This document shows, piece by piece, positions 5,090-60,004 of a stretch of 64,000 nucleotides of DNA. The stretch lies in NCBI GenBank assembly GCA_001799675.1, contig MGTX01000016.1, positions 9,876 to 73,875 on the forward strand. Direction: 5' to 3'. The position numbers and the translations under genes were made by a program. The DNA is from Elusimicrobia bacterium GWA2_66_18 (lineage in GTDB: Bacteria > Elusimicrobiota > Elusimicrobia > UBA1565 > UBA9628). Under the pieces are notes generated by a model. It ran no database searches and was not told the DNA's origin. It saw only the letters and a list, made by a program, of their open reading frames with translations. How positions within the stretch are numbered: the first letter of the stretch is position 1; each line of letters opens with the position of its first letter.

Positions 5090-5124
5090 TTTAGCTAAAA
5101 TGTCGCGTCATTAAGGAGGACTCA

Positions 5125-38142: not shown

Positions 38143-40443
38143 TTAATCCGCTCCCACGTAACGCGCGTAGCGCCGATGAAACGGCCACCGGCAAATCCGG
38201 TTGAGACTCTCGAGCGTGCGCAGCGCCCCCACGGCGCCCATCTCGAAGAGATCGAGCGAGAATTGGGATTTCCCGGCCCGCGCCAGCCTCGGGTCGGACG
38301 CATACTCCGAATAGACCGCCTCGAAACGGCCGCCCGCCAGCAGCGCCTCGAGATGCTCGGGGGTCTTGAAGAACGACAAGTGGGGAGACTCTCGTCCCGC
38401 TTGGCCGTAACACAGAACGTGGACCGCGAACCCCATCTCCCTGAGCAGGCGCAACAGCGGGATTCCCCACATCTGGGACGCGTCGGTCAGCCGTCCCGCG
38501 TGATGAGAGTCCACGACGAAGGCCAAGGCATGGCCGTTGGCCTCCCGCCGAGCGCGGTCCCAATCGCCGGATATCTCCCCGAAGGACTTCTCGAAAGCCG
38601 CGCGGACTTGGCGTTGGCGTCCGAACTCGCCGGCGACTCCCTTGAGCCAGGTCTTCGTCGCCTCCGGGCCGTAGGGCGCGGCGAGTCTCAGAGAACGGAT
38701 CGGCATCGGCGCGAAGAACTCGCGATAGGTCTCTTCGTAGGCGCCGTTCGGGTAGAGGACCTGGACCGGCGCCGCGAGGTAGCTCCGGGCGGCGTCCAAA
38801 TTCAGGAACGGCATCACGCGCGCTCGGACCTCCACGCCGGCCGCCTCCAGCAGGCGCACGACTTCCAGAAGGCTCCGGTTTTCCGGGAAACCCACCAGAT
38901 TGATTGCGCGCCTGCGCCGCCTGACCTTGGCAAAGGAAGGACTGTCGCGCATCTTCTTGAACAACTCAAGCCCCACGTCGGTGCATCCGCCGTTCTCGGC
39001 CGGATTCGAGTAAACGATGGGGACCTTCGTGCGCTCCTGCCAGCGCGCCGCCACCGCCGTCGCGTCGTCGCCGATCACCGTCGGGATGCAGGTCGAATGG
39101 ACGACGATCGCATCCGCACCGTCATGGCTCACCGCTTGGCCGAGGGCCTCGTCGAGCTTGCGGCCCCCGCCGTGGATGACGTCGATGTCCCTCAGGTCCG
39201 TCATGATCTCGCCGCCCGGCTCCTCGCCCGGCTCTTCGCCCGACTCTCCGCCCGGCGCGCAACCGGCATCCTGGCGCGGCCATGGAAACTTAAAGAAGGA
39301 CGGCAGGCTCGCGTCGTAGTAATCCGGAGTGGAGTAGGCGCATTCCAGATCCTGATGCCGGACGTCGATCGTAGCGGCCCTTATCTCCAAATGCCTCTTG
39401 GCGTGACGGCGAGTCTCGAAATCGCAGAAAAAGCGACGCCACTGATCCTCACTCCCCCAGACCTGGGAATTCTGGCCCGGATTGTTGTCCCAAAGAGACG
39501 CCTGCCAGGATAAATCCGCCTCGACATCCGGCCCCCTCTCCGGTCTTTGTTCCCCTGAGCGCCGCTCAACCGGTTGAGGGAGCGACGAAACGGACGGGCG
39601 CTCCGACGGCGCCTGAGGAACGTCGATGAAAGCTCTCCGGGACGACTCATGGAACTGCTCGTCTGTAATAGGAGAGGGGACCTTCGCGGTGGTACGGTCG
39701 AATTTCCACAGTTCCTGCGCCAGCAAACTTACGCGTCGCGACATCTCAGCGTCGGGGGCGTGTTCGACAAGGGTCCGGCGCCGATACTCCGCCTCACGGA
39801 CGGCGGCCTCTCGAGTAAAAAAAGAGAGGACCTTCGTCCCGATCAGCGCCGCCAGGCGCTCGACGGCCTTGATATCGGCCCCCGGGTCGCGGAGATTGGC
39901 GACCAGACCGCAGAGGGCGACGCCGTTGGCGCTGTAATTGCGGATGGCGCGGGCGATATTGTTTGCCGCATAGAGGGCCATGAGCTCTTCGGACGTCACG
40001 ATGACGACCTTGTCGGCAAATCCTTGCCGCAGCGGGGCCGCGAACCCCCCGCAGACGACGTCTCCCAGGACGTCGAAGAGCGCAACGTCATAGCGGTCCT
40101 CCCGCAGGATTCCCGCCCCCTCCAACAGTTCGATCATGCGCGAGATTCCTCTCCCCGCGCAGCCGATGCCTGGTTCCGGCCCCCCCGCCTCGATGCAGTC
40201 GACGCCCAGCCTGCCTCGCACCAGAATCTGGGAAAGATCTGATCCACGCGAGTCCATGAAGGCCGACTGCTCGACGACGGTGCGGATGGGTTTGCCGTCC
40301 GTCAGAGCGACGGTCGTGTCGTGCTTGGGATCGCACCCGACGAGGAGGACCCGCTTCCCCTGCCGGGCATAAACGGCCGCGAGGTTGGCCGACAGCGTGG
40401 ACTTGCCGATGCCGCCCTTGCCGAAGATCGTTATCCGTTGCAT
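38143..40443 (-). CDS. Fusion of NifH/BchL-like ATPase with a NifD/NifE/BchN-like component-1 domain (set A)
   Basis: N-terminal FGKGGIGKST, CDPKHD, GIGCAGRGI (cluster Cys) and DVLGDVVCGGFAAP (cluster Cys). An acidic/Gly-rich linker follows, then a ~420-aa domain with the IVVHSTCIPTVIGDD block paralogous to the standalone NifD-like genes; 766 aa. Confidence 0.8.
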   Translation of the reverse strand: MQRITIFGKGGIGKSTLSANLAAVYARQGKRVLLVGCDPKHDTTVALTDGKPIRTVVEQSAFMDSRGSDLSQILVRGRLGVDCIEAGGPEPGIGCAGRGISRMIELLEGAGILREDRYDVALFDVLGDVVCGGFAAPLRQGFADKVVIVTSEELMALYAANNIARAIRNYSANGVALCGLVANLRDPGADIKAVERLAALIGTKVLSFFTREAAVREAEYRRRTLVEHAPDAEMSRRVSLLAQELWKFDRTTAKVPSPITDEQFHESSRRAFIDVPQAPSERPSVSSLPQPVERRSGEQRPERGPDVEADLSWQASLWDNNPGQNSQVWGSEDQWRRFFCDFETRRHAKRHLEIRAATIDVRHQDLECAYSTPDYYDASLPSFFKFPWPRQDAGCAPGGESGEEPGEEPGGEIMTDLRDIDVIHGGGRKLDEALGQAVSHDGADAIVVHSTCIPTVIGDDATAVAARWQERTKVPIVYSNPAENGGCTDVGLELFKKMRDSPSFAKVRRRRRAINLVGFPENRSLLEVVRLLEAAGVEVRARVMPFLNLDAARSYLAAPVQVLYPNGAYEETYREFFAPMPIRSLRLAAPYGPEATKTWLKGVAGEFGRQRQVRAAFEKSFGEISGDWDRARREANGHALAFVVDSHHAGRLTDASQMWGIPLLRLLREMGFAVHVLCYGQAGRESPHLSFFKTPEHLEALLAGGRFEAVYSEYASDPRLARAGKSQFSLDLFEMGAVGALRTLESLNRICRWPFHRRYARYVGAD

Positions 40444-40454
40444 GTCTCCCCCTC

Positions 40455-42371
40455 TTAGTGACGACGTGGCGGGACGCGGGAGGCGCGTTCTTTCGCTTCC
40501 GAAATCTGCCGGCCGCTCATCCGGGAACCCAACGTCTCCATGGACCGGCGGGCCTTCTCATGCCCTTGCGCCGAAGCGAGGAGGTACCACTTGTAGGCTT
40601 CCACGTGGTCTTGAGGCACGCCGCCTCCGGACTCGCAGAGAAAACCCAACGCCGCCTGGGCGTCCATGCTGCCTTGCTCGGCGGCTTTTCTGTACCAGAA
40701 AAAGGCGCTGGCTTCGTCCTTCGCGACGCCCTGGCCTCCCGCGTACATGAACCCCAGATTGTTTTGAGCTCGGGCGTCCCCGCGACCTCCGGCCTTGTGG
40801 TACCATCGCGCCGCTTTGGCGTAATCGCGCGTCACGCCGTCGCCGTTGTAATAGATGTTCCCCGCGTTGAACTGGGCCTCGGTCTTCCCCGCCCGGGCGG
40901 CCCCCAGGAACCACTTCAGAGCCTTGCCATAATCCCTCCGGTCGTAATACATGACCCCCAGATTGTTCTGCGCGTCGATATCGCCTTGAGCGGCGGCCTT
41001 GTTGTACCAAACGATGGCCTTGGAGGAATCCTGCCTCACCCCCCGGCCGAAACTGTACATCTCTCCAAGTCGGTATTGAGCGAGGGGGTCGCCCTTCGTG
41101 GCGGCTGAAAAAAACGATTCGAGAACCTGTTCGTATCGACCGTTCTTGTAAGCGGCGTCGGCCTCCCCAAGAGTGGCGGCCCAAGAGGTCCCTGCTGCGC
41201 AGACGACCGCGATCAAAAGGATCGCAATCCTGCGGAATGCGCGGAGCCCCTTTGGGACGGGGATCATCGCCGCGAAGCCCTTCTCGCGGATCTCCCGCAC
41301 GCTCATCCCGCCGCAGCGCGCCTCCAGGGCGCAACCACGGCATTGCGACGCCTTCAGGAAGTAACGGGACTCGATGTAGAACCGGGCGAAGGAGAAGATG
41401 TCGGGCTTCTTGCCGAAACGGAAGGGCTCCGCCTTCCCCTCCGGGCGCAGGCAGAGAGGGCCGACCTTGGCCGGCAGGCGGCCGTCCTTGACGCACAGAG
41501 CGAGGTCGCTGCAGAAATCCCGGAGGAAACAATGCCGGCAGGCGTCTCCGGAGCAGCTGGGATATCTCCCCGCATTGAGGTAGCGCGCGAAGATGCGCCG
41601 GCGGCCGCGGACCTCATCGAGGATCTTCGCCGGCGGCTGGATGAGGGATTCAAAATCCTCCAGATGCTCGGGCCTCAGGCGGTTGGTCCAGATGTGCAGA
41701 TCGGGACGGCGGCTGAGCTCGAGCGCGCGATGGAGGCGCGCCAGGTTCTCCGGCCGGGAGAAGTCGCAATGGAGCTCCGAACGGTTCTTCCAGGCATCGC
41801 CGAAGGGGACCAGGGCCAGCAAGTCGAACTCCCCGACTCCCAGGCCGATGCAGAAGTCGAGATGCTCGCGCAGGACAGGCAGGTTCAGCTTGTTGATGAC
41901 GACATCCACGCTCACGATAAGCCCCGGAGTGGCTACCGCAGCCCGCAGGCCCGAGAGCGCCTGGACGAAAGATCCGGGGACCTGAGTCAACCGGTCATGC
42001 AGGGCGGGCGTGTTGCCGTGCAAGGAGAAGGTGACCTCCTTTAAGCCCGCCGCGACGGCCCTCTTGAGGAAATCGGGATAGCAGAACCTGCGGCCGTTGG
42101 TAATCGTCTGGATATGAGTGTAGCCCAGTTCGCGCGCCAGCTCCACGATCTCGATAAACTCGGGGTGGATGGTGGCTTCGCCGCCGCTGAGCACCACGCG
42201 GCGCAGCCCCTGTTTGAGGCCGGTGAGCAGGGATCTCCTCAGGGACGCGAGCGGGACGACGCCTCCGGTCTGCGCGAAACGGTCCAGGCAGAAGATGCAG
42301 CGCTGGTTGCAGTACCGGGTGAGCCGGACCCAGTGCCGTTTTTCGTAAGCGCCTTCTCCGTTGTCGCTCAT
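40455..42371 (-). CDS. Radical SAM/SPASM enzyme fused to a TM helix and C-terminal Sel1-like repeats
   Basis: Starts at MSDNGEGAY (ATG 42371..42369). RYCNQRCIFC, SGGEAT, and SPASM-like CRHCFLRDFC and CRGCALEARCGG. Then a hydrophobic helix (IAILLIAVVCAAGTSWA) and about seven Sel1 repeats (AQYRLGEMYSFGRGV...). Confidence 0.75.
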   Translation of the reverse strand: MSDNGEGAYEKRHWVRLTRYCNQRCIFCLDRFAQTGGVVPLASLRRSLLTGLKQGLRRVVLSGGEATIHPEFIEIVELARELGYTHIQTITNGRRFCYPDFLKRAVAAGLKEVTFSLHGNTPALHDRLTQVPGSFVQALSGLRAAVATPGLIVSVDVVINKLNLPVLREHLDFCIGLGVGEFDLLALVPFGDAWKNRSELHCDFSRPENLARLHRALELSRRPDLHIWTNRLRPEHLEDFESLIQPPAKILDEVRGRRRIFARYLNAGRYPSCSGDACRHCFLRDFCSDLALCVKDGRLPAKVGPLCLRPEGKAEPFRFGKKPDIFSFARFYIESRYFLKASQCRGCALEARCGGMSVREIREKGFAAMIPVPKGLRAFRRIAILLIAVVCAAGTSWAATLGEADAAYKNGRYEQVLESFFSAATKGDPLAQYRLGEMYSFGRGVRQDSSKAIVWYNKAAAQGDIDAQNNLGVMYYDRRDYGKALKWFLGAARAGKTEAQFNAGNIYYNGDGVTRDYAKAARWYHKAGGRGDARAQNNLGFMYAGGQGVAKDEASAFFWYRKAAEQGSMDAQAALGFLCESGGGVPQDHVEAYKWYLLASAQGHEKARRSMETLGSRMSGRQISEAKERASRVPPRRH

Positions 42372-43651
42372 GCGCCTTCCGCCTGCGCCGCTTGCTCGGC
42401 CACGGAAGGCGGCTGTTCCTGGTTCATGCCCCGCGAGACCTCGTTGGCCACGCGCGACAGGAAGCCCAAGGCGCCCTGAAATCCCAGGAACGGCTCGTCG
42501 CGCAGGAAGTGAGTGTCTTCCGAGGGATATCCGAACTCCAGCCACTTCGGACCGCGGTGGACCTGGGAGAAGGCAAACGCGCTGCCGACGATAAGATCCG
42601 CCCCTCCCTCCCGGCGCGCGAGTTCGCCCCATCGCTCGCGGATCTCGCTGGGAAGCGGTTCGAAGATCGTGCCCGGGCGGCGCTCCAGGGACTGTCTCTG
42701 GGCCTCAGGAAGATGATAGGCCCCTCCGATCACGATCGTGCCCGCGATCCTCCCTCCCAGGTCCTCGATCTGTTCGGCGAAGCAGAGCGCGTAATGAGGG
42801 TCGCCGGAAAAGGCGAAAGTCCGGTTCAAGAAGACGTGGGGCACGCTCCACGCCAGGCGAGGCGCCACTTCGTCGAGCTCGGCGGCGATGAAGGCCTGCG
42901 CCTGATCCTCGCGGCCGAACTCCCGGCCGAGGAGATCGACGAAGCGCCGGGTCGCCTCCAGGCCGAACGGCAGACCCGCCTCGATGAGTCGCGCGCCCAG
43001 GCGTTTCGACAGGATCTTCGCGGCCTTGCGGCCGTAGGGCATCGAGACGACGGCTGCGGCCCGGCGCACGTCGCGCAGACGTTCGTAGGGCCGGCCGGAC
43101 AGCCAAATCGAGACGGGCTCCAGGCCCAACGCCCGGACGATCCGCTCGAGTTCCTTGAGGTTGCCCAGATGGTCGCCTTCATTGCGGTCCATCAAATAGC
43201 CCACGAGGGCGACGTTCCGGGACTTCGGCTTGGCGCCCGAAAGGTCCATGCCGGCCGCCATCGCCTCCATGATCGAAGCGTAGCCGTCCAGCCAATCGCC
43301 CGACACGGCGGAACGCCGCGGCATGGTGAAGGAGGGCTTGTCGGACCCGGCCAGGGCCTCGCGTAGGATGCGGTCGTAATCCGTGCCGACGATGGAGCAC
43401 ATCGGCATCGAGCCCATGAAGACCACGCCGCAGTCGGGAAAGGCCGCCATGCGCCGCAAGGAGGCGGCGATGTCGCCTTCGCAGTCCCCGGCGATGTTGA
43501 AGACGTTGACCCCCGTGTGCTGAATCCGGTGGCGGCTGTCGCAGGACAAGAGCGTCGAGAAGAGATCGTGACGGCCGTGGATGTGCGCGGCCTTGTCGAA
43601 AATGCAGCTGGGACCGTCGCCCAAAAAGAATGCGTCCGGAACGGCGTTCAA
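42368..43651 (-). CDS. Nitrogenase component-1-like protein, NifK/NifN-like (set B)
   Basis: 427 aa, paralog of 36865..38142 (shared blocks WLDGYA, MDRNEGDH, ERPFLGF). Confidence 0.6.
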   Translation of the reverse strand: MNAVPDAFFLGDGPSCIFDKAAHIHGRHDLFSTLLSCDSRHRIQHTGVNVFNIAGDCEGDIAASLRRMAAFPDCGVVFMGSMPMCSIVGTDYDRILREALAGSDKPSFTMPRRSAVSGDWLDGYASIMEAMAAGMDLSGAKPKSRNVALVGYLMDRNEGDHLGNLKELERIVRALGLEPVSIWLSGRPYERLRDVRRAAAVVSMPYGRKAAKILSKRLGARLIEAGLPFGLEATRRFVDLLGREFGREDQAQAFIAAELDEVAPRLAWSVPHVFLNRTFAFSGDPHYALCFAEQIEDLGGRIAGTIVIGGAYHLPEAQRQSLERRPGTIFEPLPSEIRERWGELARREGGADLIVGSAFAFSQVHRGPKWLEFGYPSEDTHFLRDEPFLGFQGALGFLSRVANEVSRGMNQEQPPSVAEQAAQAEGA

Positions 43652-43700
43652 GGCGAGATACGCTCCCTGGAGATAGGGGATGTTGATGCGGACTCCGATC

Positions 43701-45392
43701 CTATGCGATATAGCTGACTCCGCGCGGCCCGGCCAGATGGGAGGCGTAGCGACGGAAGAACGGCAGACGGCAGATGGAGAGGAGTTTCTGGAAAGTCCGC
43801 ATCGCGCCGCCTAGGCCCATCTCGAAATCCTTGCTGGCGAAGCGCGCCTTGCCGGCCCTCATGACGCGCCAGTCGAAGACGACGTCCGAGTAGACGGCGC
43901 GAAAGCCCCCCTCGCGCAGGGCCCGCTCCAGCTCCCAAGGAGTTCTGAAGATCGTCACGCGCGCGTCCTCGAGTCCGGCCGGGAGCTTGGGTCCGGCGCC
44001 GTGGAGGTCGTAGAAAAGGATGTCGACGGCGAACCCCATCTCCCGCGCCATCTTCGCCAGAGGCGCGCCGTGCCCGTAACGCAAGGTCATCAGGCGCGGC
44101 AAGGTCGCCTCCGAGGCGACGAAGGCGAGGCTGTAGCCCGACGCCTCCTTTTTCATCGCTTCCCAGGCGGGCAGAAAATTCACGGTCGCCTCGGCCCAGG
44201 CCGCGGCGAACTCAGGCTCCCTGCCGGCGGCGACGGCGATGCCCCTCAGGCACTCGCGCGTCCCCTCGACGCCGTAGGGAGCGCGCACGGAGATGACCGG
44301 GCGGGAGGTCTGAGCCAGGATCTCATGGACCTTGGTCGGGTAAGAACTCCGCTCGCAGAAGATCTGCCAGACCGCCTTGGGCAGGTCGTCGAGGACGGAG
44401 AGGCTGACGTCGGGCAGAACGCAGATGTTGGTCTTGAGGCCGAGCTTCTTCAAGAAGGGGAGAAGCTCGGAGTCGCGATAGCTGGGCGGGAAATGGAAGA
44501 GGTTGACGGCCAGGGCGTCGGCCGGCGCGTCGAAGAAGCCGGGACGTCCCAACAAGGCGCGGAAATGCTCCCCGAAGTTGTCGTTCTCGTCGCGGTCCTT
44601 CTGGCTCCAGCGCACCGAGGTTCCTCCGACCTCAGCCTCGCAGCGCCGCGCCAATCCCTGGAAGTCCTCTCCCATGATGATGGGCGTGCACAGATGGGTG
44701 AAGAGGAGGTAGTTCCCGGTCTTGGCTCGCTTGCGGACCTCGGCCACCAGGGCGTCGGCCCTCTCGCCGGTGCCCATGATCATGTCGCGTTCGGCGAGTT
44801 CGGTCACGATGGAGGAATCACGGCCGTCGCCGCTCGACCCGCTCTCGCTCTCCTGGGGCCAATCCAGGAAGGTCCACTTTTTGAAGCTGCGATGAGGCCG
44901 AGCATAATAGCACTCGAGATCGGCATACTCGATGTTCACCGTATGCGGGTCGGAACACGAGGGCACTCCCAACAGAACCTCGAAGTCCTGGTCCGCGTAG
45001 AAGTTGCGCCAGCCAGCCTCCAGAAGTCCGATGGGCTGGCCGATGCAGGGGACCTTGACGCGGTCGCCGTCCTGGCCGGGCACGACGTCTTCGACGAAGG
45101 ACCGGGGATCCTCCTCGAGCATGCGGGCGACGCTCTCGAAACGGCGGGATCCGAGCCGCGCGGCCGCGACTTCGAGGAACTTCATGACGGCCGTTCCGGC
45201 GTCGCCTTCCGCTCTCAACGAAAGACCGGGTGCCGAAAGCTGCGCCCCGGGCGCGTTGCGGGGCAGGAGATGGAAGACCAGGCGATGATCGCCGTGGCGC
45301 AGACGCAGGCAGATGTTCTCCTTGCCCAGCCCGCAAAGCCCTTCCAGCCGCCATCCCTTCCGCGGGGCCTTGAGGCCCAGCAGGGCCCCCAT
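43701..45392 (-). CDS. Nitrogenase component-1-like protein, NifD/NifE-like (set B)
   Basis: Paralogous to the C-terminal domain of the 38143..40443 fusion (LFTHLCTPIIMGED vs IVVHSTCIPTVIGDD; C-terminal FEMG...ICRLPFFRRYA). Start uncertain: the track ORF runs to 45887, but that region overlaps the upstream nifH-like gene. Confidence 0.6.
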   Translation of the reverse strand: MGALLGLKAPRKGWRLEGLCGLGKENICLRLRHGDHRLVFHLLPRNAPGAQLSAPGLSLRAEGDAGTAVMKFLEVAAARLGSRRFESVARMLEEDPRSFVEDVVPGQDGDRVKVPCIGQPIGLLEAGWRNFYADQDFEVLLGVPSCSDPHTVNIEYADLECYYARPHRSFKKWTFLDWPQESESGSSGDGRDSSIVTELAERDMIMGTGERADALVAEVRKRAKTGNYLLFTHLCTPIIMGEDFQGLARRCEAEVGGTSVRWSQKDRDENDNFGEHFRALLGRPGFFDAPADALAVNLFHFPPSYRDSELLPFLKKLGLKTNICVLPDVSLSVLDDLPKAVWQIFCERSSYPTKVHEILAQTSRPVISVRAPYGVEGTRECLRGIAVAAGREPEFAAAWAEATVNFLPAWEAMKKEASGYSLAFVASEATLPRLMTLRYGHGAPLAKMAREMGFAVDILFYDLHGAGPKLPAGLEDARVTIFRTPWELERALREGGFRAVYSDVVFDWRVMRAGKARFASKDFEMGLGGAMRTFQKLLSICRLPFFRRYASHLAGPRGVSYIA

Positions 45393-45466
45393 CGACGCCA
45401 GCGCCCGCGGACCCGCCGAGATGTGCCGAACCGTCGGCGGGACCTTCGCTTCTCGTCCAGGGATCT

Positions 45467-46297
45467 TCACCACGGCTGGTAGAACCGGCGGTCGTCCATC
45501 GGCGTCGGAACGGGGCAATCCTGCTTGCGAATGGCGAGGATCTTCGCGGCGAGCGCTTTGATGCTCTTGGCGAACGGCGACTTGGGAGCGCGCTCTACGA
45601 CGGTGTTCTTGCGGGCGAACTCCGCCTCGCGCACGGCCGGGTCGCGCGGCACGAACTCCAGGATGCGCGTGCCGAGGATCTTGGCGAAACGCTCGATGCG
45701 CCCGCGTTCCACCTTGCCGTCCTTGAGGTTGGCCACCAGGCCCGCGAGATAAACCCCGTTCGAAGCGTAGGTCTTGACCGACTTGGCGATGTTGTTGGCG
45801 GCGTAGAGCGCCATCAGCTCCTCTGAGACCACGATCACGATCTTCTCCGCGAAGCCCTTGCGCAGAGGCGCGGCGAAGCCTCCGCACACCACGTCTCCGA
45901 GGACGTCGAAGACCCGGGCGTCATAGCCCCCCTCCTTCAGGACTCCCAGGTCCTGGAGCGCTTCGAGCATCAGGGAGATCCCGCGCCCCGCGCAGCCCAC
46001 CCCCGGCTCCGGCCCGCCGGCCTCGACGCAGTCGATGCCGAGGCGGCCCTTGACCATGAGGTCGGAAGTCTTGAGTTCTCCATGATCGCGCACGCCGAAG
46101 ATGCGGGCGTACTTCTCCATGAAGGTCTCTATGAGCTCGCCATCAACGAGTCCCAGCGTGGAATCATGCTTGGGGTCGCAGCCGACATGGAGCACCTTGA
46201 GGCCCTGGAGGGCGTAGATCGAGCTCAGGTTCGAGGAGATGGTCGACTTGCCGATTCCGCCCTTGCCGAAGACGACGATGTTGTTCTGCATGCTCAC
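45467..46297 (-). CDS. NifH/BchL-family Fe-protein-like ATPase (copy 2)
   Basis: FGKGGIGKST, CDPKHDST, GVGCAGRGI, DVLGDVVCGGFAAP; 276 aa. Confidence 0.85.
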   Translation of the reverse strand: MSMQNNIVVFGKGGIGKSTISSNLSSIYALQGLKVLHVGCDPKHDSTLGLVDGELIETFMEKYARIFGVRDHGELKTSDLMVKGRLGIDCVEAGGPEPGVGCAGRGISLMLEALQDLGVLKEGGYDARVFDVLGDVVCGGFAAPLRKGFAEKIVIVVSEELMALYAANNIAKSVKTYASNGVYLAGLVANLKDGKVERGRIERFAKILGTRILEFVPRDPAVREAEFARKNTVVERAPKSPFAKSIKALAAKILAIRKQDCPVPTPMDDRRFYQPW

Positions 46298-47166
46298 GCG
46301 CGATTCCTTTTCTTGCCGGCGCAGACCGGGCCCGGCCGAGAGACCCGGTTCTCGCGCACGAACGACTGGAACTCCTCGCTCGACATCGGGCGAACCTTCG
46401 CACCGGGGACCGCGCCGCGACGCGCGGCGATGGACGCCGCCAGCGCGGCGAAACGCCCCGCGGCCCGCTTGCCCGGCTTATGATCGAAGACCGTCACGCC
46501 GTCTTCTTCCGCGTCGAGGATGGCCGGATCGCGCAGCATGACGGCCGCGATGGGCACGCCCAGGCGCGCGGCGAAGGCCTCGAGGACCTCCCGCCTCGCG
46601 TCGTTCTGACGCAGGTTGAAGATGATGCCCCCCACCGAGACGCCCTGGAGGTACGGCTCGGCCGCCACGCGCACGATGTTGTTGGCCGCGAACAGGGACG
46701 CCGTCTCTTCAGAGGAGACGATGTAGACGTCGCGGCCGAAGCCGAAGCGCAGAGGCGCGACGAACCCGCCGCAGACGAGATCTCCTAGGACGTCGAAGAT
46801 GAGGGTGTCGTAGCCGCTGAGCTCGCGCGCGTGCTCCTCGAGGTACTGGCACAGCGTGGCCACGCTGCGCCCTCCGCAGCCCTGACCCGGCTGAGGACCT
46901 CCGGTCTCGAGGATGTCAAGTCCGGGACGGCTGCGCACCGCCAGTTCCTGGAAGCGATATCCTTTGAGTCCGGTCACCATATCCACGATGGTCGGCGGGC
47001 GCTTGCCGCCGAGCAGGCGCAGGGAGGTGTCGGCCTTGGGATCGCAGCCCAGCAGGAGGACTTTGCGCCCCTCTCGGGCGAAACACATCGCCAAGTGGGC
47101 GCACATGGTGGACTTGCCTACCCCGCCCTTGCCGTAGACGACGAGCGTCATTGGACCAGTCCTCAT
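46294..47166 (-). CDS. NifH/BchL-family Fe-protein-like ATPase (copy 3, more divergent)
   Basis: YGKGGVGKST, CDPKADTS, GQGCGGRSV, DVLGDLVCGGFVAP; 290 aa; 4-nt overlap with copy 2. Confidence 0.85.
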   Translation of the reverse strand: MRTGPMTLVVYGKGGVGKSTMCAHLAMCFAREGRKVLLLGCDPKADTSLRLLGGKRPPTIVDMVTGLKGYRFQELAVRSRPGLDILETGGPQPGQGCGGRSVATLCQYLEEHARELSGYDTLIFDVLGDLVCGGFVAPLRFGFGRDVYIVSSEETASLFAANNIVRVAAEPYLQGVSVGGIIFNLRQNDARREVLEAFAARLGVPIAAVMLRDPAILDAEEDGVTVFDHKPGKRAAGRFAALAASIAARRGAVPGAKVRPMSSEEFQSFVRENRVSRPGPVCAGKKRNRA

Positions 47167-47170
47167 GGCC

Positions 47171-48394
47171 TCACCGTCCTGCGCCCGCCGCTTCGCCGTG
47201 GAGCACCGCGGCGCAAAGCCGGTCCACGAGATGACGCAAGCCCGCGTACCCCAGGAACGGCCGCTCGTAGACCGGATGCTCCAGATAGTTTGGATAGCCC
47301 ATCGGCACGTGGAGCAAGTCGCTCTGGAAAAAACGGGCCGTGGGCGCCAGGCACAGCACGCGCTCGGATCCGGACGCCGACTGCGCGCCGCTCGCAGAGA
47401 GATCGCGCAGTCCCAGATCGACGCTGAGTTCGCGCAGGCGAGCCTCCATTTGCGAGTCCTCCTGAAGGATCAGGACGCCGCGGCCTGCAAGGAGGCGCAA
47501 GACGTGGGCCTCGGTATCGCGCACAGCGGCGGCGCTCTCCGCCTTGATGAAGGCCTTCGCGCGCGCCCGCCGCCCGACGCGGGCGGCGATCTTGAGCAGG
47601 AAGTCCTCGGTAGCCGACAGGCCCAAAGGAAGGTCGACCTCGCAGAGGGATACTCCCAGCCTGCGCGCCACGATGCGGGCCGCCTCGCGCGCGTAAGGCA
47701 TCGAGACCACCAGACCGGCGCGCTCCGCCGCCTCCAGTTCCGCGCGGCCGCCGCCGGAAAGCCAGACGGAAGTCACGCGCAGGCCGATAGCGCCCAGCAG
47801 GCGCTTGAGCTCCCGCAGGTTGCCGGCCGCGTCGGGTTCATCGCGGTCCTGAAGGTGCCCCACGATTGCCACCGCGTCCTGCCTGCCTCGTCCGGGACGC
47901 AGAGTCACCGCCTCGGCCAGGGCCGCGCAGGTCAGCGCGTAGCCGTCGAGCCAGGTTCCGCCCAGCGAGCGCGACGGGACATGACAGACCAGCGCGGAGG
48001 TCGCCCCGGCATGGCGCCGCGAGATCTCCTTCAGCGGGAAGCCCACCAGTTCGTGGAAGTCGAAGGCGGTCGAGAGCACGATGCCCGCGTCGGGCTGGGC
48101 GCAGACGTCGGCGAAGATCCTCTCGACGAGGCCGGACCGGTCCGCGGAAAGGCTCTGGACCTCCTCGCGCTGGATCTGGCCGGTATGCACGACGCGCCGG
48201 TATCCGATTGGAGGCAGAAGGCGGCAGCGGAGGTTGTGGCAATACTGCATCTCCGCCTTGGTGAAGACGCAGTAGGGACCGTCCACGATGAGATAGGAGT
48301 CGGAGATCGCGTCGACGGCGACATAGACGCCGTTGAGGAAAGGCAGCCGCAGGATGTCGTCCTTGGGTGCGACGGGAGCGATCATGCCTGCCAT
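47171..48394 (-). CDS. Nitrogenase component-1-like protein, NifK/NifN-like (set C)
   Basis: LPFLNGVYVAVDAISDSYLIVDGPYC N-terminal block. Start ambiguous (48394 or 48439). Confidence 0.6.
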   Translation of the reverse strand: MAGMIAPVAPKDDILRLPFLNGVYVAVDAISDSYLIVDGPYCVFTKAEMQYCHNLRCRLLPPIGYRRVVHTGQIQREEVQSLSADRSGLVERIFADVCAQPDAGIVLSTAFDFHELVGFPLKEISRRHAGATSALVCHVPSRSLGGTWLDGYALTCAALAEAVTLRPGRGRQDAVAIVGHLQDRDEPDAAGNLRELKRLLGAIGLRVTSVWLSGGGRAELEAAERAGLVVSMPYAREAARIVARRLGVSLCEVDLPLGLSATEDFLLKIAARVGRRARAKAFIKAESAAAVRDTEAHVLRLLAGRGVLILQEDSQMEARLRELSVDLGLRDLSASGAQSASGSERVLCLAPTARFFQSDLLHVPMGYPNYLEHPVYERPFLGYAGLRHLVDRLCAAVLHGEAAGAGR

Positions 48395-50112
48395 GGCTTC
48401 AGATACGCACGATGACGCGGGAAAGGACGCGCCTCGCACTTCGTCAGAAGACGTCTGCCGGTCCGGAGCAGGCCATCAAGACCGGGCTCGAAAACCTGCT
48501 CGGTGAAGCCCGGAAGAGCATGAGCCTCCAGGCGCGGATCATGATTGAAGTGGGAGAAAACCAGATCGATGCCCCGGCCCAGAGCGCGGTCGAGTTCGTC
48601 GCGCGAGGAGAAGGAGTCGAACTCGATGGTCCCCTGCCCGCTGGCCGTTTTGGGACGGCGCAACGACCGTGCGCGCCCCCCATCCTCGGCGCTCCAGACC
48701 AGGCAGCGGACGTTGAACCCCAGGTCGCAGAGCAGTCCCGCCACGGAGAACCCGAAAATACTCCCCACGGAGGCGAAGAGCCCGATGTCGATCCGGTCGC
48801 CGATGAGAGCGACGGTGCGGCGGCGACATTCGCGCCCCAAGGCGGCGAAAGCGTCCGCGCGCTCCTCCTGGGCGCTCTCGAACACGCGCGCGTCCCCCTC
48901 CAGGCCGAGGACGGAACTCACGCGCTCGAGCCAGCCCCGGGTCCCGCAATGACCGTAGGGCGGGTGGTAGCGCACCACGCGCAGGCCGCGGCGCAGAAAG
49001 ACCCCGTCTTCGATCTTCTCCCAACCGACCGGGTTGAGCCAGACGACGGCGCCGGCCGCGCCCATCGCGGGAGCCTTGTCGAAGTCGAGATTGGGGAAGA
49101 GCGTGCCGACCACGCGCAGGCCAAGCGCCTCGCAGAGCGCTCCCGCCTCGCGGCCCGCCGCCGCCGTGGGCACGCCCGCCAGCAGAACCGCCCGCGGATC
49201 GACCTTGGCGGAGGACCGTGTGCCGGCGATCATCTTCTCAATCATGTCCTCGTAGGCCGGACCGGGAGCGTGGGTCTTTGAGGTCCATAACACCGGCACG
49301 CCCAGTTCACCCTCGATGCGGTCGATAAACGGCTTCGGATTGTCGCCGATGAGTTCCGGCAGGCAGGTGGTTTTCAGATGGATGAAGGCCGGCTTCTCGT
49401 CGCGCGCCACCCGCTCGAGGGTCCGCCCCAGGATCTCCTGGGTGCGCCCGCCCACGACGTCCGCCTCGGTGATGGAGGTGTCCACGTAACCGTAGTCCCC
49501 GTCGGATCGCACGCGATTGTCGTCGGCGAACAGCCTCAGGAGGCCGATGGCGAGGAGCGGATTATTGAGGCGGCACTCGAGCGTGGCATGACTGACCTGG
49601 AAATAGCGGGCGCCGAAACTGACTTCCTGTTCCAGGAACCGCGCCTGGGGATAGACGAACTTCCAGAAATCCGGAGAGTGGTCGACTCGGCGGTAGTAGG
49701 TCTCGAAGCGCGACGCAACGCAGCTGCCCTGAGGATCGCTGTAGAGCAGACTGTCGCGTTTGAGCCGGGCGAGGAGGTCGGCGAATCGCGTCGCGGACGC
49801 TCCCTCGGCCATCGTCCGAACCAAGAGGAGCTCCTCTTGCGAGAGTTCTTCGCTCGGCGCCCGGGACGAGAACAGAAGCCCTCCCGTCCGATCCAGCTTG
49901 ATGCTCCACTCCAGACGCCGCGGCCCCTTGACCAGGGAGAACTCGACTTCCAGGCCCTTCAGCGCGGCCTTCTCCAGTTCCCAATCGAAGGGAGGCCCTC
50001 CGATGAGGCCCGAAAAATATTCCAGACCATCCTTGCCGAGACGGTGACGCGGCGAACGAGGTTCGTCGTCGCGCTTGCGCCGTCCTTCTGCGACCGCGGA
50101 ACCCTGCATCAT
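48382..50112 (-). CDS. Nitrogenase component-1-like protein, NifD/NifE-like (set C)
   Basis: 576 aa. IHLKTTCLPELIGDN block; paralog of the NifD-like domains above. Confidence 0.6.
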   Translation of the reverse strand: MMQGSAVAEGRRKRDDEPRSPRHRLGKDGLEYFSGLIGGPPFDWELEKAALKGLEVEFSLVKGPRRLEWSIKLDRTGGLLFSSRAPSEELSQEELLLVRTMAEGASATRFADLLARLKRDSLLYSDPQGSCVASRFETYYRRVDHSPDFWKFVYPQARFLEQEVSFGARYFQVSHATLECRLNNPLLAIGLLRLFADDNRVRSDGDYGYVDTSITEADVVGGRTQEILGRTLERVARDEKPAFIHLKTTCLPELIGDNPKPFIDRIEGELGVPVLWTSKTHAPGPAYEDMIEKMIAGTRSSAKVDPRAVLLAGVPTAAAGREAGALCEALGLRVVGTLFPNLDFDKAPAMGAAGAVVWLNPVGWEKIEDGVFLRRGLRVVRYHPPYGHCGTRGWLERVSSVLGLEGDARVFESAQEERADAFAALGRECRRRTVALIGDRIDIGLFASVGSIFGFSVAGLLCDLGFNVRCLVWSAEDGGRARSLRRPKTASGQGTIEFDSFSSRDELDRALGRGIDLVFSHFNHDPRLEAHALPGFTEQVFEPGLDGLLRTGRRLLTKCEARPFPRHRAYLKPWQA

Positions 50113-50260: not shown

Positions 50261-50887
50261 CTAGGCCGCCGGCTCTTTCCTGAAGACCAGGAAGAATCCG
50301 GGAACAGGATATTCGGAGGTTGCGCTCCCGCCTGAAGGGATGGCGAGGTCTTGATAGCGCCCGGAAAACCCGGCGTCAAGAAGCAGCTCGATCGTTTCCT
50401 TCTTGCCGCAGCTGCCGCTTATCAGCCGGTCCTGGTAATAGATGAGACGGCCCCCTGTTCCCAACATCCGCAGTATCTCCCGCGCATAGCGCGATGCGAC
50501 GCCCATGTCCCCTTTAGATTCGAACCTGAGCGAATTGATCATGATGATCAGATCCAGATCGCCGAAGGAATCCATGCCCGTCGCATAATCGCTTCTGGCC
50601 CTTTTCACTCTGATGTTATCGATGTGATTATTCCGGGCATATCTTCTCAGATGCTCCACCCAACGCACACGGCTATCCGTTGCGTGAACAAAACCTTTTT
50701 TTCCAACCAAGCCCGCGATCTTGACCGCGAAATATCCGGCTCCCGCTCCGATATCCGCCACTTTCATGCCCGGCTTCACAGCCATTGTTTTCAATTGGAG
50801 CCTGGCATCGGCAGAGCGATCCCTCACGCGATCCTCAGTCAACTGCCAGCCGGCATAATGGGGTCGGCGCTTAAGCGATTTGAGCAC
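50261..50887 (-). CDS. Class I SAM-dependent methyltransferase
   Basis: Motif I VADIGAGAGYFA; 208 aa; GTG start overlapping the upstream stop by 1 nt. Confidence 0.7.
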   Translation of the reverse strand: MLKSLKRRPHYAGWQLTEDRVRDRSADARLQLKTMAVKPGMKVADIGAGAGYFAVKIAGLVGKKGFVHATDSRVRWVEHLRRYARNNHIDNIRVKRARSDYATGMDSFGDLDLIIMINSLRFESKGDMGVASRYAREILRMLGTGGRLIYYQDRLISGSCGKKETIELLLDAGFSGRYQDLAIPSGGSATSEYPVPGFFLVFRKEPAA

Positions 50888-52935
50888 TATTGATCACCTA
50901 ACTCTGCGTGCCTGGGCTGGCTCGGTTTGCCCAGACACGCCATCAAGGCCGCCAACGCAGCGGCCTGCGCCCGGGTGCGAAGGGGTGTCTCGCTCGAGTA
51001 GCCGAAAGCGAGGTCGCCGACGGCCTTGTAGTACCGTGCGGCGCCTTGCAGCGGCTCGATGTTCACGATGAGAGCATCTTCTCCATCGTGAAGCGGCAAT
51101 CGTCGTGCGAGAGTCACGACCACCAAACGGCCCGGGCTCGGCTCGATGGAAGTGACGACAAAATCGGCGAGTCCTATATGAGAACCCGCTTGAGACAGCT
51201 GCGTTCGCACGCGTTCGGCGAGATCTGCGCTGGGAGAAGCGAGCGCTGCGCGACGCCTGCCCGCATCCGCGCAGCGCCGTTCCAGGCGATCGAAGGTTTC
51301 CCGGATGAGTTCCTTTTTTTTCCATGGCGGGAGCGTGGTCTTCATCAGATGGACGAGTTCGGCGGCGAACAGATCAGGACGCTTCGTGTCCAGCCCATGG
51401 CCGTCCACGAATTCCTTGAGCCAAGCATAGAGCGCGTCTCCCGAAAACACAGCATCCGGCATGACGCCGCGCAACGAGACGGCGCATACACGCACGATGA
51501 TGCCGCACGCGACGGCCGCATGACAATCCTTAAAGCGCCACGGCAGAAGCCCTGGGCGCGAGCGGAAGTCGGCCATCATGCCGTACGTCATCGCGACATC
51601 GTCGTAGCGCCTGCATACGATGCCGCCCTCATGCAGCGCCAATGCGGTGATCGGGGCTTCCTTGTGCAACTCGAGCGCCGAATAGAGCCAAGGCGCATTA
51701 GGACTGAATCCTCTGCTGATTCCTTCGTTGATCGTGATCTCGATGTCTTCCAGGGTCGTCCAAGGCGTGAAGGCGATGTAGCCCAGGGGCTGCGCGTAGT
51801 CGAAGCAAGCGGGATAGGCCGCCTTGAGACGGTCCGCCAGTTCCAAGCCCTGATCGATCTGTTGTGCGGTGACGCCCTTATTAAAACGAGCGTTCTCTCG
51901 CGGCGAGAAATGCTCGATGCCCATGCGGAAGAGGTTCAGCCGATGGCCGTATTTCTCGAGCTGGGGGAGCAATCTTTCAATATCGGCGCCGGCCCTCAAA
52001 AAGTCGTCTATTCGGGGCGCGAAAAAAAAATTCGAGGCGGGCAGGTCCAGTCCCATGATCATCTCGAAGAATTCGGCGATGCGCCTGAAGATACGGATGT
52101 CGCGCATGTTGAAACGGCCGCAATTGCGGCCTTGGGCGGCGGCGGTGCGGATGACCGCCGCGAACTGGGTGCGCGCGAGTTCGATGGGATCGGTCTGCAT
52201 CGAGCTCATGGCCGGATGGGTCGACGAGCAAAACGCGCAGCCTTTCCGGCGATCGCAGGCTGAAAGGTCGACGCCGCGATAAAGCGGGTTGCGGCTAAGG
52301 TCGGCGCGGTAATCGCAGGAGACGCCGCCGAGGATGGCCAGGAAAGGGCCGCACTCCCGAGCCTGCGGGTTCATCATGACCGCGTCGTAAATCGGCTCGA
52401 CCGCGCCTACGAAATAGCGGTCTTCGCGCCGCGGCAGACCCAGCCATTGCGACAGCCAGTCGGTCTGAAAGAAACGGAGAATGGGGATGTCCCGTTGGGA
52501 GATCGATTTTCCCCCAGACGCCTCCTTGCTCCAGCCTTCATGCTCCGCGATGAGATCGCACGCGGTCCGCTTCCCGGCTCGGGATTGGCGGTCATCCTCA
52601 GCGGACACGAGAAACTCGCCGCGCGGAACGGCCGTCTTCAAGAGTCGAAGCAGCTCCGGGCTCAGCGCCTCATTGATGAGGATATGCGTCGGAGCCCACT
52701 CGGCGAGGCGCCTCGCCAATTCGTCTTTGTCGCTTCGTCCGAGGACGGGCTTGTTCCAGACCTCGGTCGGGCTTTTCTTGAGCCCTTCGAAGCGGGCCCC
52801 CACGCACAACCAACGGGCTGCGATGCCGCCGCTTTCGGCAAAGCCTTTGTAGAAAGGGAAAAAGTCCGCCCACTCATTCCTCAAAGGCGAAGCGGCTACG
52901 AACTCGAGCAACAAAAGGCGCCTAGTGCCTATCAT
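50887..52935 (-). CDS. Large radical-SAM-like protein with non-canonical C-x23-C-x2-C motif (paralog 1 of 4)
   Basis: Conserved blocks GGVSCDYRADLSRNPLYRGVDL...GCAFC, GIEHFSPRENARFNKGVT (resembles the rSAM G-x-E-S/F-S...N-K-G motif), FTPWTTLED, PWRFKD. N-terminal Rossmann-like (possibly B12-binding-like) region. Start at the second Met. Confidence 0.55.
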   Translation of the reverse strand: MIGTRRLLLLEFVAASPLRNEWADFFPFYKGFAESGGIAARWLCVGARFEGLKKSPTEVWNKPVLGRSDKDELARRLAEWAPTHILINEALSPELLRLLKTAVPRGEFLVSAEDDRQSRAGKRTACDLIAEHEGWSKEASGGKSISQRDIPILRFFQTDWLSQWLGLPRREDRYFVGAVEPIYDAVMMNPQARECGPFLAILGGVSCDYRADLSRNPLYRGVDLSACDRRKGCAFCSSTHPAMSSMQTDPIELARTQFAAVIRTAAAQGRNCGRFNMRDIRIFRRIAEFFEMIMGLDLPASNFFFAPRIDDFLRAGADIERLLPQLEKYGHRLNLFRMGIEHFSPRENARFNKGVTAQQIDQGLELADRLKAAYPACFDYAQPLGYIAFTPWTTLEDIEITINEGISRGFSPNAPWLYSALELHKEAPITALALHEGGIVCRRYDDVAMTYGMMADFRSRPGLLPWRFKDCHAAVACGIIVRVCAVSLRGVMPDAVFSGDALYAWLKEFVDGHGLDTKRPDLFAAELVHLMKTTLPPWKKKELIRETFDRLERRCADAGRRRAALASPSADLAERVRTQLSQAGSHIGLADFVVTSIEPSPGRLVVVTLARRLPLHDGEDALIVNIEPLQGAARYYKAVGDLAFGYSSETPLRTRAQAAALAALMACLGKPSQPRHAELGDQ

Positions 52936-53025
52936 CCCATCTCCGCGGTGTCGCATCCGCCTTCCTGAAAAACGTCCGATCAACGGTCCCCTGCGCCCGT
53001 GAATATTTCTCAGCGCTGCACATGA

Positions 53026-54543
53026 TTATTTCCGTCGGGCGCTGCGAAGGAGATCGAGCAATTCGAGCGCCGAGCTGGTTGTGGGATGGCGCTTGATGGT
53101 CTCGATGGCTTCTCGGAAGAGTGGCAGCGGGTCGAATGGCCCCGGCGGCGACTCCTTGATGAAGGCATCTGCCGCCAGTTTCTCAGGGTCATCTGCCGGG
53201 ATGTTGAATCGGTCGGATGACAGTCTGCGCGCGAGACGCCACAGGATCGCGACTTCCGAGTGAGCGAAGCGCCAGGGGATTTCGTTGCGGTCTGCGTCGT
53301 TATTGCAGCCGGCGTTGTAGAAAATGCTCTCGCTCTCCTTGACCAAGAGGCCGTCTTGCTCGGCAAGGAGCGTAATGGGGACATCCCGGAAGAGCATCAA
53401 TCGCCGGCTGAGCGCGAAGGCGCGGTCGATCAAGCGGCAGCGCTCGATATTGTCGAGGTTGATGCGCAGGTCCTCCGGCGTTGTCCAGGGGGTGAAGAGA
53501 ATCATGCCCAATCCTCCAAACGGCAAGCGGAACTGCGCGGGCCAGCGCGCGTTGGTATCGATCAGGAAGGCGGTTGCTTCATGGACCTGCTCCGCCGTGA
53601 TTCCTTTGTGCAAGCGCCTATTTTCATCCGGTGAAAAATTCTCCACGCTCAGACCGTTGATGCGTAATGCCGCGCCATTTTCGGCCAGCAACGGCAGGCA
53701 GCGCTCAATGACTCTACGCGCATTGAGCAATTCATCCAACCGCAGCATGAAATTAAGCTCGACTCCGCAGACTCCGCGCTGGACCAGAGCGCGGACGAGT
53801 TCCTCAAAGCGTCTCCAGAGTTCGAAGCCGCACAAATTGATGCGTTTTTCGACGCCCGGCGTTGGCCGCTGACGGCAGACCGACTCAATCTGCTTCACCG
53901 CAAAGGCCACCGAGTTCTCAATGTTCCAATGGGAGCTCCTTAAATCGGGCATCGCGCAAAAGGAGCAGCCCATGCTCACCGACGGAAGCTGGAGGCGTCG
54001 GTAGAAAGGATTGCGGGCGACGGGCGCGCGGTAAGAGCAGCGAGAGCCGCCCACAACCTCGATCACCGGGTTGATCGCCCATAAGGCTTGGTTGAGGATC
54101 TTGCGGCGGTAGATCGGCTGGATCCTGTCGAGCAGGCGGGCATCATCGAGCACGGAGCCCCGAGCCTCCGGGATGCGATGCCGGACGTAGTCGGCGATAT
54201 CTGGAAGGTCCTCGGTCAGGGCCCAGTAGACGAGACGTGCGCCAGGGACGACCGCCGAGATGTCGGATAGCTGTTTTTTGGGCAGGCGTGCGTTGAGCAC
54301 GACAACCTGAGGCTTGCGGCGGGCCGCCTCGGCGAGCAAGAGCCTGAGATCTCGTGGCGTCAAGGTATATCGGAGGGTAGGGGCATAGCGCACTCCAAGC
54401 ACGCACCAGTAAGCTCGCCGCCCCAGCAGACGACTCAGTCCCATCAAGAATGGATAGGCGCTAGTCCGGGCATTTTGCATGACGGCATCGGTCAGCAAAT
54501 CAACGAGCATCCAGCAGGAAGAATCAATGGTGTTCGAACTCAT
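53026..54543 (-). CDS. Radical-SAM-like protein with non-canonical Cys motif (paralog 2)
   Basis: GGSRCSYRAPVARNPFYRRL...GCSFC, GLSVENFSPDENRRLHKGIT, FTPWTTPED, PWRFAHSE; 505 aa. Confidence 0.55.
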   Translation of the reverse strand: MSSNTIDSSCWMLVDLLTDAVMQNARTSAYPFLMGLSRLLGRRAYWCVLGVRYAPTLRYTLTPRDLRLLLAEAARRKPQVVVLNARLPKKQLSDISAVVPGARLVYWALTEDLPDIADYVRHRIPEARGSVLDDARLLDRIQPIYRRKILNQALWAINPVIEVVGGSRCSYRAPVARNPFYRRLQLPSVSMGCSFCAMPDLRSSHWNIENSVAFAVKQIESVCRQRPTPGVEKRINLCGFELWRRFEELVRALVQRGVCGVELNFMLRLDELLNARRVIERCLPLLAENGAALRINGLSVENFSPDENRRLHKGITAEQVHEATAFLIDTNARWPAQFRLPFGGLGMILFTPWTTPEDLRINLDNIERCRLIDRAFALSRRLMLFRDVPITLLAEQDGLLVKESESIFYNAGCNNDADRNEIPWRFAHSEVAILWRLARRLSSDRFNIPADDPEKLAADAFIKESPPGPFDPLPLFREAIETIKRHPTTSSALELLDLLRSARRK

Positions 54544-59982: not shown

Positions 59983-60004
59983 GTCGCCGGGAGAAAACAA
60001 CGAC

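Follow-up and report, generated by a model that had tools for sequence, protein, structure and literature searches.

The 64,000-nucleotide stretch of DNA analysed here, which as a whole we call the window, comes from Elusimicrobia bacterium GWA2_66_18 (assembly GCA_001799675.1, contig MGTX01000016.1, positions 9,876 to 73,875) and carries several sets of genes for nitrogenase-like (NFL) proteins, each with an ATPase resembling NifH (H) and a pair of subunits resembling NifD and NifK (D and K, together DK). Domain calls on the open reading frames (ORFs) of the window were made with Pfam, which placed Oxidored_nitro in six ORFs (E values of 2e-16 to 4e-39) and Fer4_NifH in H2, H3 and the N-terminal half of the HD_A ORF (5e-62 to 2e-81). 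Three complete modules are present, namely (H3, D_C, K_C), (H2, D_B, K_B) and (HD_A, K_A). The gene order D_C-K_C-H3-H2-D_B-K_B, followed by a radical SAM (rSAM) gene and then by an H-D fusion with K_A on the minus strand, had been given correctly in a preliminary description of this DNA, and its count of four H, four D and three K copies is right for the window. The fourth H and D belong to another H-D fusion of a fourth module at the window end, which was found by tblastn with the window proteins. At least one further DK pair lies beyond that end.

From R2 (54543) to S1 (28754), 17 genes overlap or abut in an operon of about 26 kb (Table 1). The GTG start of H2 overlaps the stop codon of H3, and the stop codon of H2 overlaps the start of D_B in the sequence GTGA. 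The three sets in the window are co-transcribed and translationally coupled in one operon with HxsC-like rSAM genes, and because they are expressed together, one pathway is favoured over a choice of alternative enzymes.

Table 1. Positions of the reductase sets and the genes around them in the window
Feature	Position	Strand	Evidence
D_C, NifD-like, 576 aa, family-specific N-terminal domain of roughly 150 aa	48382..50112	-	Pfam Oxidored_nitro, E 1e-24; public gene call equally long
K_C, NifK-like, about 407 aa	47171..48394 (ORF 47171-48439)	-	Oxidored_nitro, E 7e-28
H3, NifH-like ATPase, most divergent H, adjacent partner of D_C/K_C	46294..47166	-	Fer4_NifH, E 5e-62
H2, NifH-like ATPase, partner of D_B/K_B	45467..46297	-	Fer4_NifH, E 2e-81
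D_B, NifD-like, family-specific N-terminal domain, 589 aa	43701..45470 (ORF 43701-45887)	-	Oxidored_nitro
K_B, NifK-like	42368..43690 (annotated start 43651)	-	Oxidored_nitro, E 1e-33
S4, HxsC-like radical SAM with transmembrane segment and Sel1 repeats	40455..42371	-	Pfam Radical_SAM and Sel1
HD_A, single 766-aa protein: NifH-like domain, linker of about 60 aa, NifD-like domain	38143..40443	-	Fer4_NifH, E 1e-79; Oxidored_nitro, E 2e-27; one ORF
K_A, NifK-like, 425 aa	36865..38142	-	Oxidored_nitro, E 4e-39
S3-TPm, HxsC-like radical SAM with RsmI-like methyltransferase domain	35151..36848	-	Radical_SAM and TP_methylase
Downstream end of the operon: S2 (rSAM), TPR protein, polytopic membrane-TPR protein, S1 (rSAM)	28754..35208	-	Pfam; genes overlap or abut
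R1 and R2, radical-SAM-like, Rossmann-type N-domain	50887..54543	-	two of four paralogs
R3 and R4, paralogs of R1/R2	57037-61993	+	
HD_4, fourth H-D fusion, 768 aa in full, cut by the window end	62087..64000	+	tblastn (from 62081), translation; full gene and K_4 in L083-L085

The paralogs are clearly divergent, as had been described. Pairwise identity was 39-56% among the H proteins, 21-30% among the D proteins (40% for HD_A versus HD_4) and 33-42% among the K proteins, far under the threshold of 95% set for near-identical copies. With identities of 21-56%, and with six independent assemblies at hand, recent duplication and an assembly artefact or collapse are ruled out. The reported difference in the NifH cluster loop (GCAGRGI versus GCGGRSV) is real, since HA, H2 and H4 read G(I/V)GCAGRGIS and H3 reads GQGCGGRSVA, a form kept in the H3 orthologues of L058 and L061. 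(L numbers denote loci of our comparison, which covered 76 loci of GTDB species genomes recovered with a K profile and further loci obtained by exact-protein look-up; about 40 kb of flanks beyond the window were taken from sister assemblies.) In neighbour-joining trees with 20 bootstrap replicates, the H, D and K clades were congruent, as (HA, DA, KA), (H2, DB, KB), (H3, DC, KC) and (H4, D4, K4), and each module clade had orthologues in other genomes. Support reached 15-20 of the 20 replicates for the H clades and all 20 for DB, DC, KC and K4; for the large A and B clades, the outer boundaries were unstable.

Gene order is conserved as well. The arrangement D_C-K_C-H3-H2-D_B-K_B recurs in Elusimicrobia L058 and L061, and L051 has D_C-K_C-H3. 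H2-D_B-K_B-(rSAM S4)-HD_A-K_A recurs in L007, L009 and L021, and L012 has the same genes with H2 after K_B; in other loci that have both, an H2-type gene stands directly before D_B. The HD_A-type fusion is present in six independent assemblies and in more than 20 other genomes. Several sets are kept together across genomes, and a single set is found in most loci of Myxococcota, Bradymonadales and Nannocystaceae. The modules are old paralogs inherited as units, not the product of a recent amplification. The ancient duplication with sub-functionalisation put forward in the preliminary description was right, then, as far as old, specialised and co-inherited modules are concerned; that the modules carry out successive, distinct reductions on one scaffold, as it further suggested, is at most an inference, and so is a substrate like that of DPOR and COR.

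One of the loci with a single H, D and K set is that of Nannocystaceae bacterium ST9 (L065, JBLWFJ010000001.1), which lies on a 6.97-Mb contig of a seemingly isolate-quality genome. This organism could be a culturable entry point to the group to which the cluster belongs.

That group is already catalogued: the window cluster is a Group VI NFL cluster. Meheust et al. 2020 defined the Group VI nitrogenase paralogs, scored Elusimicrobia bacterium GWC2_65_9 (GCA_001799875) as positive in their supplementary tables, and reported several paralog copies beside many rSAM genes in this lineage. Membership follows because window proteins are identical to those of GWC2_65_9: K_A is identical on contig MGUH01000008.1 of GCA_001799875.1 and in five other independent Rifle groundwater assemblies, and D_B is identical to 'A2X40_04040 [Elusimicrobia bacterium GWC2_65_9]'. 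Nothing here differs in kind from the Group VI NFL of groundwater Elusimicrobia, Myxococcales and Gracilibacteria, with which the cluster shares several H/D/K copies, many adjacent rSAM genes, H proteins with both cluster cysteines, divergent D and K proteins and the lack of NifB. According to the 2026 Chem Rev review, Group VI is without a characterised member, its organisms are uncultured, the sole functional hint is 'tetrapyrrole', and the ligands of FeMo-co (Av NifD Cys275 and His442) are lacking. New beyond the Group VI reports are the module orthology, the ligand signatures of each set, the H-D fusions, the N-terminal domain of D and the link to hxsDBA operons. The words 'fusion', 'fused' and 'His-Xaa-Ser' are absent from the text of the 2026 review, and the searched part of Meheust et al. 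2020 makes no mention of fusions or Hxs. The value of the cluster lies in its function and in a new, testable link to the maturation of HxS-repeat peptides, the object itself being already known.

The catalytic motifs of the H proteins are well preserved. All four copies keep the P-loop GKGGxGKST, CDPKxD, GCxGR and DVLGDxVCGGF, that is, Walker A, switch I/II and both [4Fe-4S] cysteines (Av Cys97 and Cys132). The most divergent copy, H3, is nearer to NifH (2e-50) than to BchL (3e-36) among PDB sequences. In the D proteins, the cysteines of 'HxDLEC' and of 'TCxPxxIGDD' are conserved at 95-98%, and a third one near the C-terminus ('ICRxPF') at 85%. By HMMER and PDB alignments, the 'TCxPxxIGDD' cysteine aligns to the 'C-P-x-x-IGDD' cysteine of nitrogenase-type alpha subunits and NifE; the 'HxDLEC' cysteine presumably corresponds to the NifD 'HGPxGC' cysteine, judging by the motif (H at -5, at the end of the first strand). 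The K proteins have an invariant cysteine in 'DGPxC' and usually a second one in 'PMCSITG'. We take the former to occupy the position of Asp36 in BchB (motif 'HGPQGD'). The ligand assignments were made by motif alignment with reference motifs of this kind.

Each module clade has its own conserved signature of putative ligands and loop. Sets B and 4 have two cysteines in D and two in K. Set A has an extra cysteine in D, 28 residues upstream ('WRRFFC', in 22 sequences) and possibly at the C62 position by spacing alone, and an extra one in K (C69); K_A has Cys36, Cys69 and Cys105. In set C, the D cysteines of 'TLEC' and 'TTC-PELIGD' are conserved in 5/5 members of the clade, and K has one cysteine ('DGPYC') with a histidine replacing the second in 4/4 members. 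The cluster in DPOR is held by three cysteines of BchN and Asp36 of BchB. Such ligation is absent here, because K has cysteine and not aspartate and just two of the three BchN-type cysteines are present in D_B, D_C and D_4. The two patterns between which the preliminary description had left the choice, three cysteines with an aspartate as in BchNB or a P-cluster, were both not found; the core is two cysteines in D and two in K, and the full six cysteines of the P-cluster are lacking. From these motifs, each H would be an ATP-dependent homodimeric [4Fe-4S] electron donor, and each DK pair would hold one simple inter-subunit Fe-S cluster, bound by two cysteines of D (three in set A) and two of K, with cysteine plus histidine as K ligands in set C. 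Centres of the P-cluster and FeMo-co types would be absent from the DK sets. Both subunits are far removed from NifD/K, their profile matches in the PDB going no further than E 1e-18 to 1e-28. The D and K profiles score higher against nitrogenase-type proteins and NifE (1e-28 to 1e-17) than against DPOR (1e-13 to 1e-8), and unlike nitrogenase proper (Nif/Vnf/Anf), the window has no NifB/NifEN assembly genes.

The sets also differ at the N-terminus of D. The unfused D_B and D_C carry a domain of about 120 aa, whereas sets A and 4 have H fused through a linker of about 60 residues. The domains of D_B and D_C are homologous (hhalign 82%, E 1e-5). In 1.84 billion proteins the domain turned up in just 30 sequence clusters, and almost all of these are D-type proteins of 560-605 aa. 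An AlphaFold2 model of the D_B domain (pLDDT 87) gave no fold match in the PDB. The idea that these domains and the C-terminal tails of the R proteins are one and the same domain was rejected, as BLAST gave nothing, and in comparison with HxsD and a small HxsD-like protein they were unrelated (hhalign probability 0.1-0.2%).

Because the small rSAM genes of the window are HxsC-like, we looked for genes of the His-Xaa-Ser (HXS) peptide system in the loci of relatives (HxsB, TIGR03978; HxsC, TIGR03977; HxsD, TIGR03976; curated NCBIfam cut-offs of 370 bits for HxsB and of 268 and 500 bits for HxsC/HxsC4). L086 is a Myxococcales locus with a K that shares 59% identity with K_A. Beside this K it encodes a bona fide HxsB (476 bits), and an HxsC-like fusion and an HxsD-like protein adjoin K as well, together with the same RsmI-like methylase. 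By iterative searches, HxsB was recovered at full length from L024/L086 (two loci that share one Myxococcales sequence), L036, L038, L049, L057, L064 and L067, and HxsD from six distinct loci; the loci with HxsB or HxsD span Elusimicrobia and Myxococcota. When all loci were scanned in six frames, (HGS)n peptides turned up in five NFL loci, and an HxS-repeat precursor is present in the relatives L211, L212, L213, L036, L049, L056, L057 and L067. Further HxsB and NFL matches fell on contigs equal in size (29702, 33365, 35119, 61075, 131410 and 170176, the last three being L211-L213).

The link is closest in three operons. In the closest sequenced relative, GCA_044450905.1 (proteins about 82% identical), there are hxsD, hxsB, a 107-aa precursor that reads 'MGKDIIPKIKKDLTRFLTSEEGKILKKD...SHGSHASHGSHGSHGSHGSHGSHASHGSHGSHGSW', five rSAM genes, H2 and D_B, and the genes from hxs to H2 and D_B run in one direction and are tightly packed. 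L212 and L213, two unrelated metagenome contigs, each have a compact hxs-NFL operon in the order hxsD, hxsB, hxsA (25-30 repeats), B12-binding protein, rSAM genes, a 400-418-aa protein, rSAM, H-D fusion and K. Their rSAM genes include clear orthologues of S4 and S7 (500 and 435 bits), those of S4 scoring 500-517 bits in the two operons.

A homologous protein of 390-418 aa is encoded in L213 (16700-17902), L212 (16780-18036) and L211 (7076-8251), with 35-41% identity between the loci and a Pfam match to Peptidase_A24 (prepilin-type) in the L213 copy only. Should this family turn out to be a protease, it would be a candidate for the processing of the leader. As for a precursor in the window itself, an ORF of 88-99 aa at 55613-55912 was considered and rejected, as it is not repetitive.

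HxsA is the demonstrated substrate of the HxsB/C/D rSAM system in Escherichia coli, where a change of +8 Da (+C -4H) takes place inside an HxS repeat, and the E. coli system blocks the entry of phage DNA (Nat Commun 2026, PMC13128918). The classical form (HxsABCD; Haft and Basu 2011) consists of four genes, with five HxS repeats and an HxsA that binds peptidoglycan, and occurs almost only in Pseudomonadota; a published survey placed 99.7% of the systems there. The window is like HXS in its HxsC-like rSAM genes, and the operons of its relatives in HxsB, HxsD and the HxS-repeat precursor; in contrast to the classical system, the precursors of the relatives carry 12-50 H(G/A/S)S repeats, there are 5-12 rSAM genes, and NFL reductases are added. 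Literature searches found no prior link of nitrogenase-like proteins with Hxs or with ribosomally synthesized and post-translationally modified peptides, and neither PMC13128918 nor the 2026 NFL review mentions the system of the other. 'Extended' HXS systems that lack NFL genes nearby are common in metagenomes; L120, L121, L132 and L153 have long (HGS)n precursors and 4-5 HxsC-like rSAM genes (S2, S4, S6 and S7, with the X270 type in L153), and no NFL genes in their flanks.

Overall, the best explanation, to which we incline by a small degree, is a Group VI NFL supercluster of old modules that serves an HXS-type peptide maturation. Its parts are of unequal strength. Judged from gene context, the chances are about even that the modules are specialised reductases of one expanded HXS-type maturation route and not isoenzymes. 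A peptide scaffold, rather than a tetrapyrrole, as the substrate context comes just short of that, and we suggest still a little more tentatively that Group VI NFL in general serve a ribosomal peptide or protein pathway as its tailoring enzymes, with several H/DK modules in series in lineages like this one. In such a route, the rSAM enzymes would modify a ribosomal precursor that has 12-50 His-(Gly/Ala/Ser)-Ser repeats at its end, the NFL modules would reduce the unsaturated or heterocyclic structures thus generated, and different modules would act at different steps or positions. Set A, which is present in the minimal operons, may be the core module, and sets B, C and 4 may be additions specific to Elusimicrobia.

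Several observations weigh against this explanation. The genes hxsA, hxsB and hxsD are absent from the window and its flanks of about 40 kb (the metagenome-assembled genome being 96% complete), where orthologues of S4, S7, S2, X270, HD_A and K_A are all present. Searches by regular expression, a hidden Markov model of the leader and the leader motif found no HxS-repeat ORF or HxsA leader in the window, L083, L088 and L089. The small rSAM proteins S1-S5, which are mutual paralogs, have HxsC4/HxsC as their best rSAM-family matches in NCBIfam at 60-120 bits, far below the curated cut-offs, whereas HxsB passes its own cut-off in L086. Of 80 metagenome loci selected through an (HGS)n DNA pattern, not one contained NFL genes in its flanks of about 5 kb, although HxsB, HxsD and S-type rSAM genes were often there; NFL is thus a minority accessory of such systems and the association is one-sided. 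In addition, the ligand assignments come from motif alignment rather than from structures, and the DK sets outnumber the H genes. We know of no chemistry that would give an NFL-reducible bond in HxsA, and every characterised NFL known to us acts on a small molecule.

Among the other explanations, tetrapyrrole cofactor synthesis is the one proposed by Meheust et al. 2020 and the 2026 Chem Rev review. The DK sets would then reduce different porphyrinoid double bonds and the rSAM enzymes would tailor the side chains. The cluster is like DPOR (BchLNB) and COR (BchXYZ) in its ATP-dependent NifH-like donor, its heterotetrameric NifDK-like part and its simple Fe-S cluster, and these two are themselves paralogous sets that act successively on one scaffold. 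The characterised relatives DPOR, COR and CfbCD use a simple [4Fe-4S] cluster; moreover, a TP_methylase-fold domain and B12-binding-type rSAM proteins are present, and NirJ/AhbC/AhbD are among the weak rSAM matches. However, the methylase half of S3-TPm matched RsmI best (TIGR00096, 9e-18) and no CobA/SirA-type family was among its matches, so that we rejected this domain as tetrapyrrole evidence; RsmI is a 2'-O-ribose methylase. The B12-binding domains are where class B rSAM enzymes bind their cofactor and tell nothing about the substrate. The window yielded no chelatase, uroporphyrinogen or corrin genes, no chlorophyll or tetrapyrrole genes lie nearby, D and K are closer to nitrogenase and NifE than to DPOR, and K has a cysteine where BchB has Asp36. 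What the operons of relatives do contain is genes for a precursor peptide and HxsB/HxsD and, in L213, for a protein of the Peptidase_A24 family. The DPOR/COR analogy of the preliminary description, as far as it implies a tetrapyrrole substrate, is weakened by the HxS precursor and rSAM maturases of the relatives. We consider a tetrapyrrole role unlikely.

It is also conceivable that some DK sets are NifEN-like scaffolds or maturases, which would put a cluster together or keep an intermediate for another set and would not be terminal reductases. NifEN is likewise a NifDK paralog with a simple [4Fe-4S] cluster at the interface and is among the best PDB matches for D (profiles against NifE, E 2e-26), and the surplus of DK sets over H genes, the change of cysteine to histidine in K_C and the split K_4 in the assemblies could all be explained in this way. 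Against it, the window and its extensions gave no NifB/NifEN family matches, no FeMo-co synthesis pathway was seen in the window, and both set B and set C come with a coupled H gene of their own. A scaffold role seems somewhat less likely than a tetrapyrrole one. Isoenzymes for the same reaction under other conditions or with other donors, in the manner of Nif, Vnf and Anf, are the least likely of all. One domain architecture throughout and the full catalytic motifs of every H would suit them, but the sets are translationally coupled in one operon and not separately regulated, D identity is just 21-30%, ligand sets and N-terminal architecture differ (fused H versus special domain), and several sets are retained together across genomes.

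CfbCD, the Ni-sirohydrochlorin a,c-diamide reductive cyclase of F430 synthesis, offers a further comparison. It is of the NFL type with a simple cluster and serves cofactor synthesis, and a persistent H-D complex has been reported for it (2026 Chem Rev review), comparable in effect to the covalent H-D fusions found here. CfbD is homomeric and has no K subunit, whereas every set here has a distinct K.

If peptide maturation by these modules is true, they would include the first nitrogenase-family enzyme with a peptide substrate, and the tetrapyrrole assignment of Group VI would be overturned. Nitrogenase-type, ATP-driven, low-potential reduction would extend to the maturation of peptide natural products or effectors, and the NFL family would be linked to a system with an antiphage role in E. 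coli. The window cluster would be a natural series of specialised reductases, and the comparison of its modules would inform the evolution of partner specificity and cluster tuning (fused or free H; cysteine or histidine ligand). All this is testable in the compact operons of L212 and L213, which name a candidate substrate gene, hxsA, the maturases and a single H-D fusion with K.

Some gene boundaries differ from the public annotation. D_B is annotated from the ATG at 45392 (563 aa), but its orthologues start about 26 residues earlier ('RH(I/V)(S/T)AGPxALA'), and its true start is most likely the GTG at 45470, which overlaps the H2 stop and gives the 589-aa protein. In K_B, similarity to K_A and K_C extends about 13 codons upstream of the annotated TTG start, to about 43690, with no in-frame ATG, GTG or TTG upstream of that start. 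The real start may be an ATC after a GGAG, just past the D_B stop. K_4 is split in the assemblies L083-L085 (17107-18671): an ORF of 310 aa is followed by a separate one of 74 aa with the conserved K C-terminus (EFGFPSFFHHAL...). A frameshift, an assembly error or decay to a pseudogene may account for this. In L088, L089 and L090 the cluster runs on for tens of kb past the window, with a further one or two DK pairs of the D_B type that have no H gene, two carbamoyltransferase, radical SAM and ferredoxin-like fusions of about 1170-1180 aa, and DDE/rve transposases.

At least nine rSAM or rSAM-like genes lie within 28.7-62 kb of the window. In S4, a hydrophobic, probably membrane-spanning segment joins the rSAM domain to at least four Sel1 repeats, an arrangement in which a catalytic domain in the cytoplasm would be tethered to a protein-binding domain outside it. 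In R1-R4 the usual CxxxCxxC is replaced by an invariant Cx22-24CxxC, and FTPWTT and WRF motifs are present; R3 has a weak DUF483 match, and homologues of the four were seen in NFL loci only. Inside the operon, 30189-34207 (minus strand) encodes a soluble TPR protein and a polytopic membrane protein that has TPRs at its C-terminus, and at 55849-57000 (plus strand) there is a membrane-anchored protein with an SGNH-like 'LLVGDSYIWGDG' block and no Pfam match. These three proteins point to envelope or protein-binding roles. Far from the reductase sets, positions 3729-6573 hold an unrelated methyltransferase module, consisting of a B12-binding corrinoid protein, a weakly Met_synt_B12-like activation protein and an MttB-family methyltransferase, followed by an amino-acid permease.

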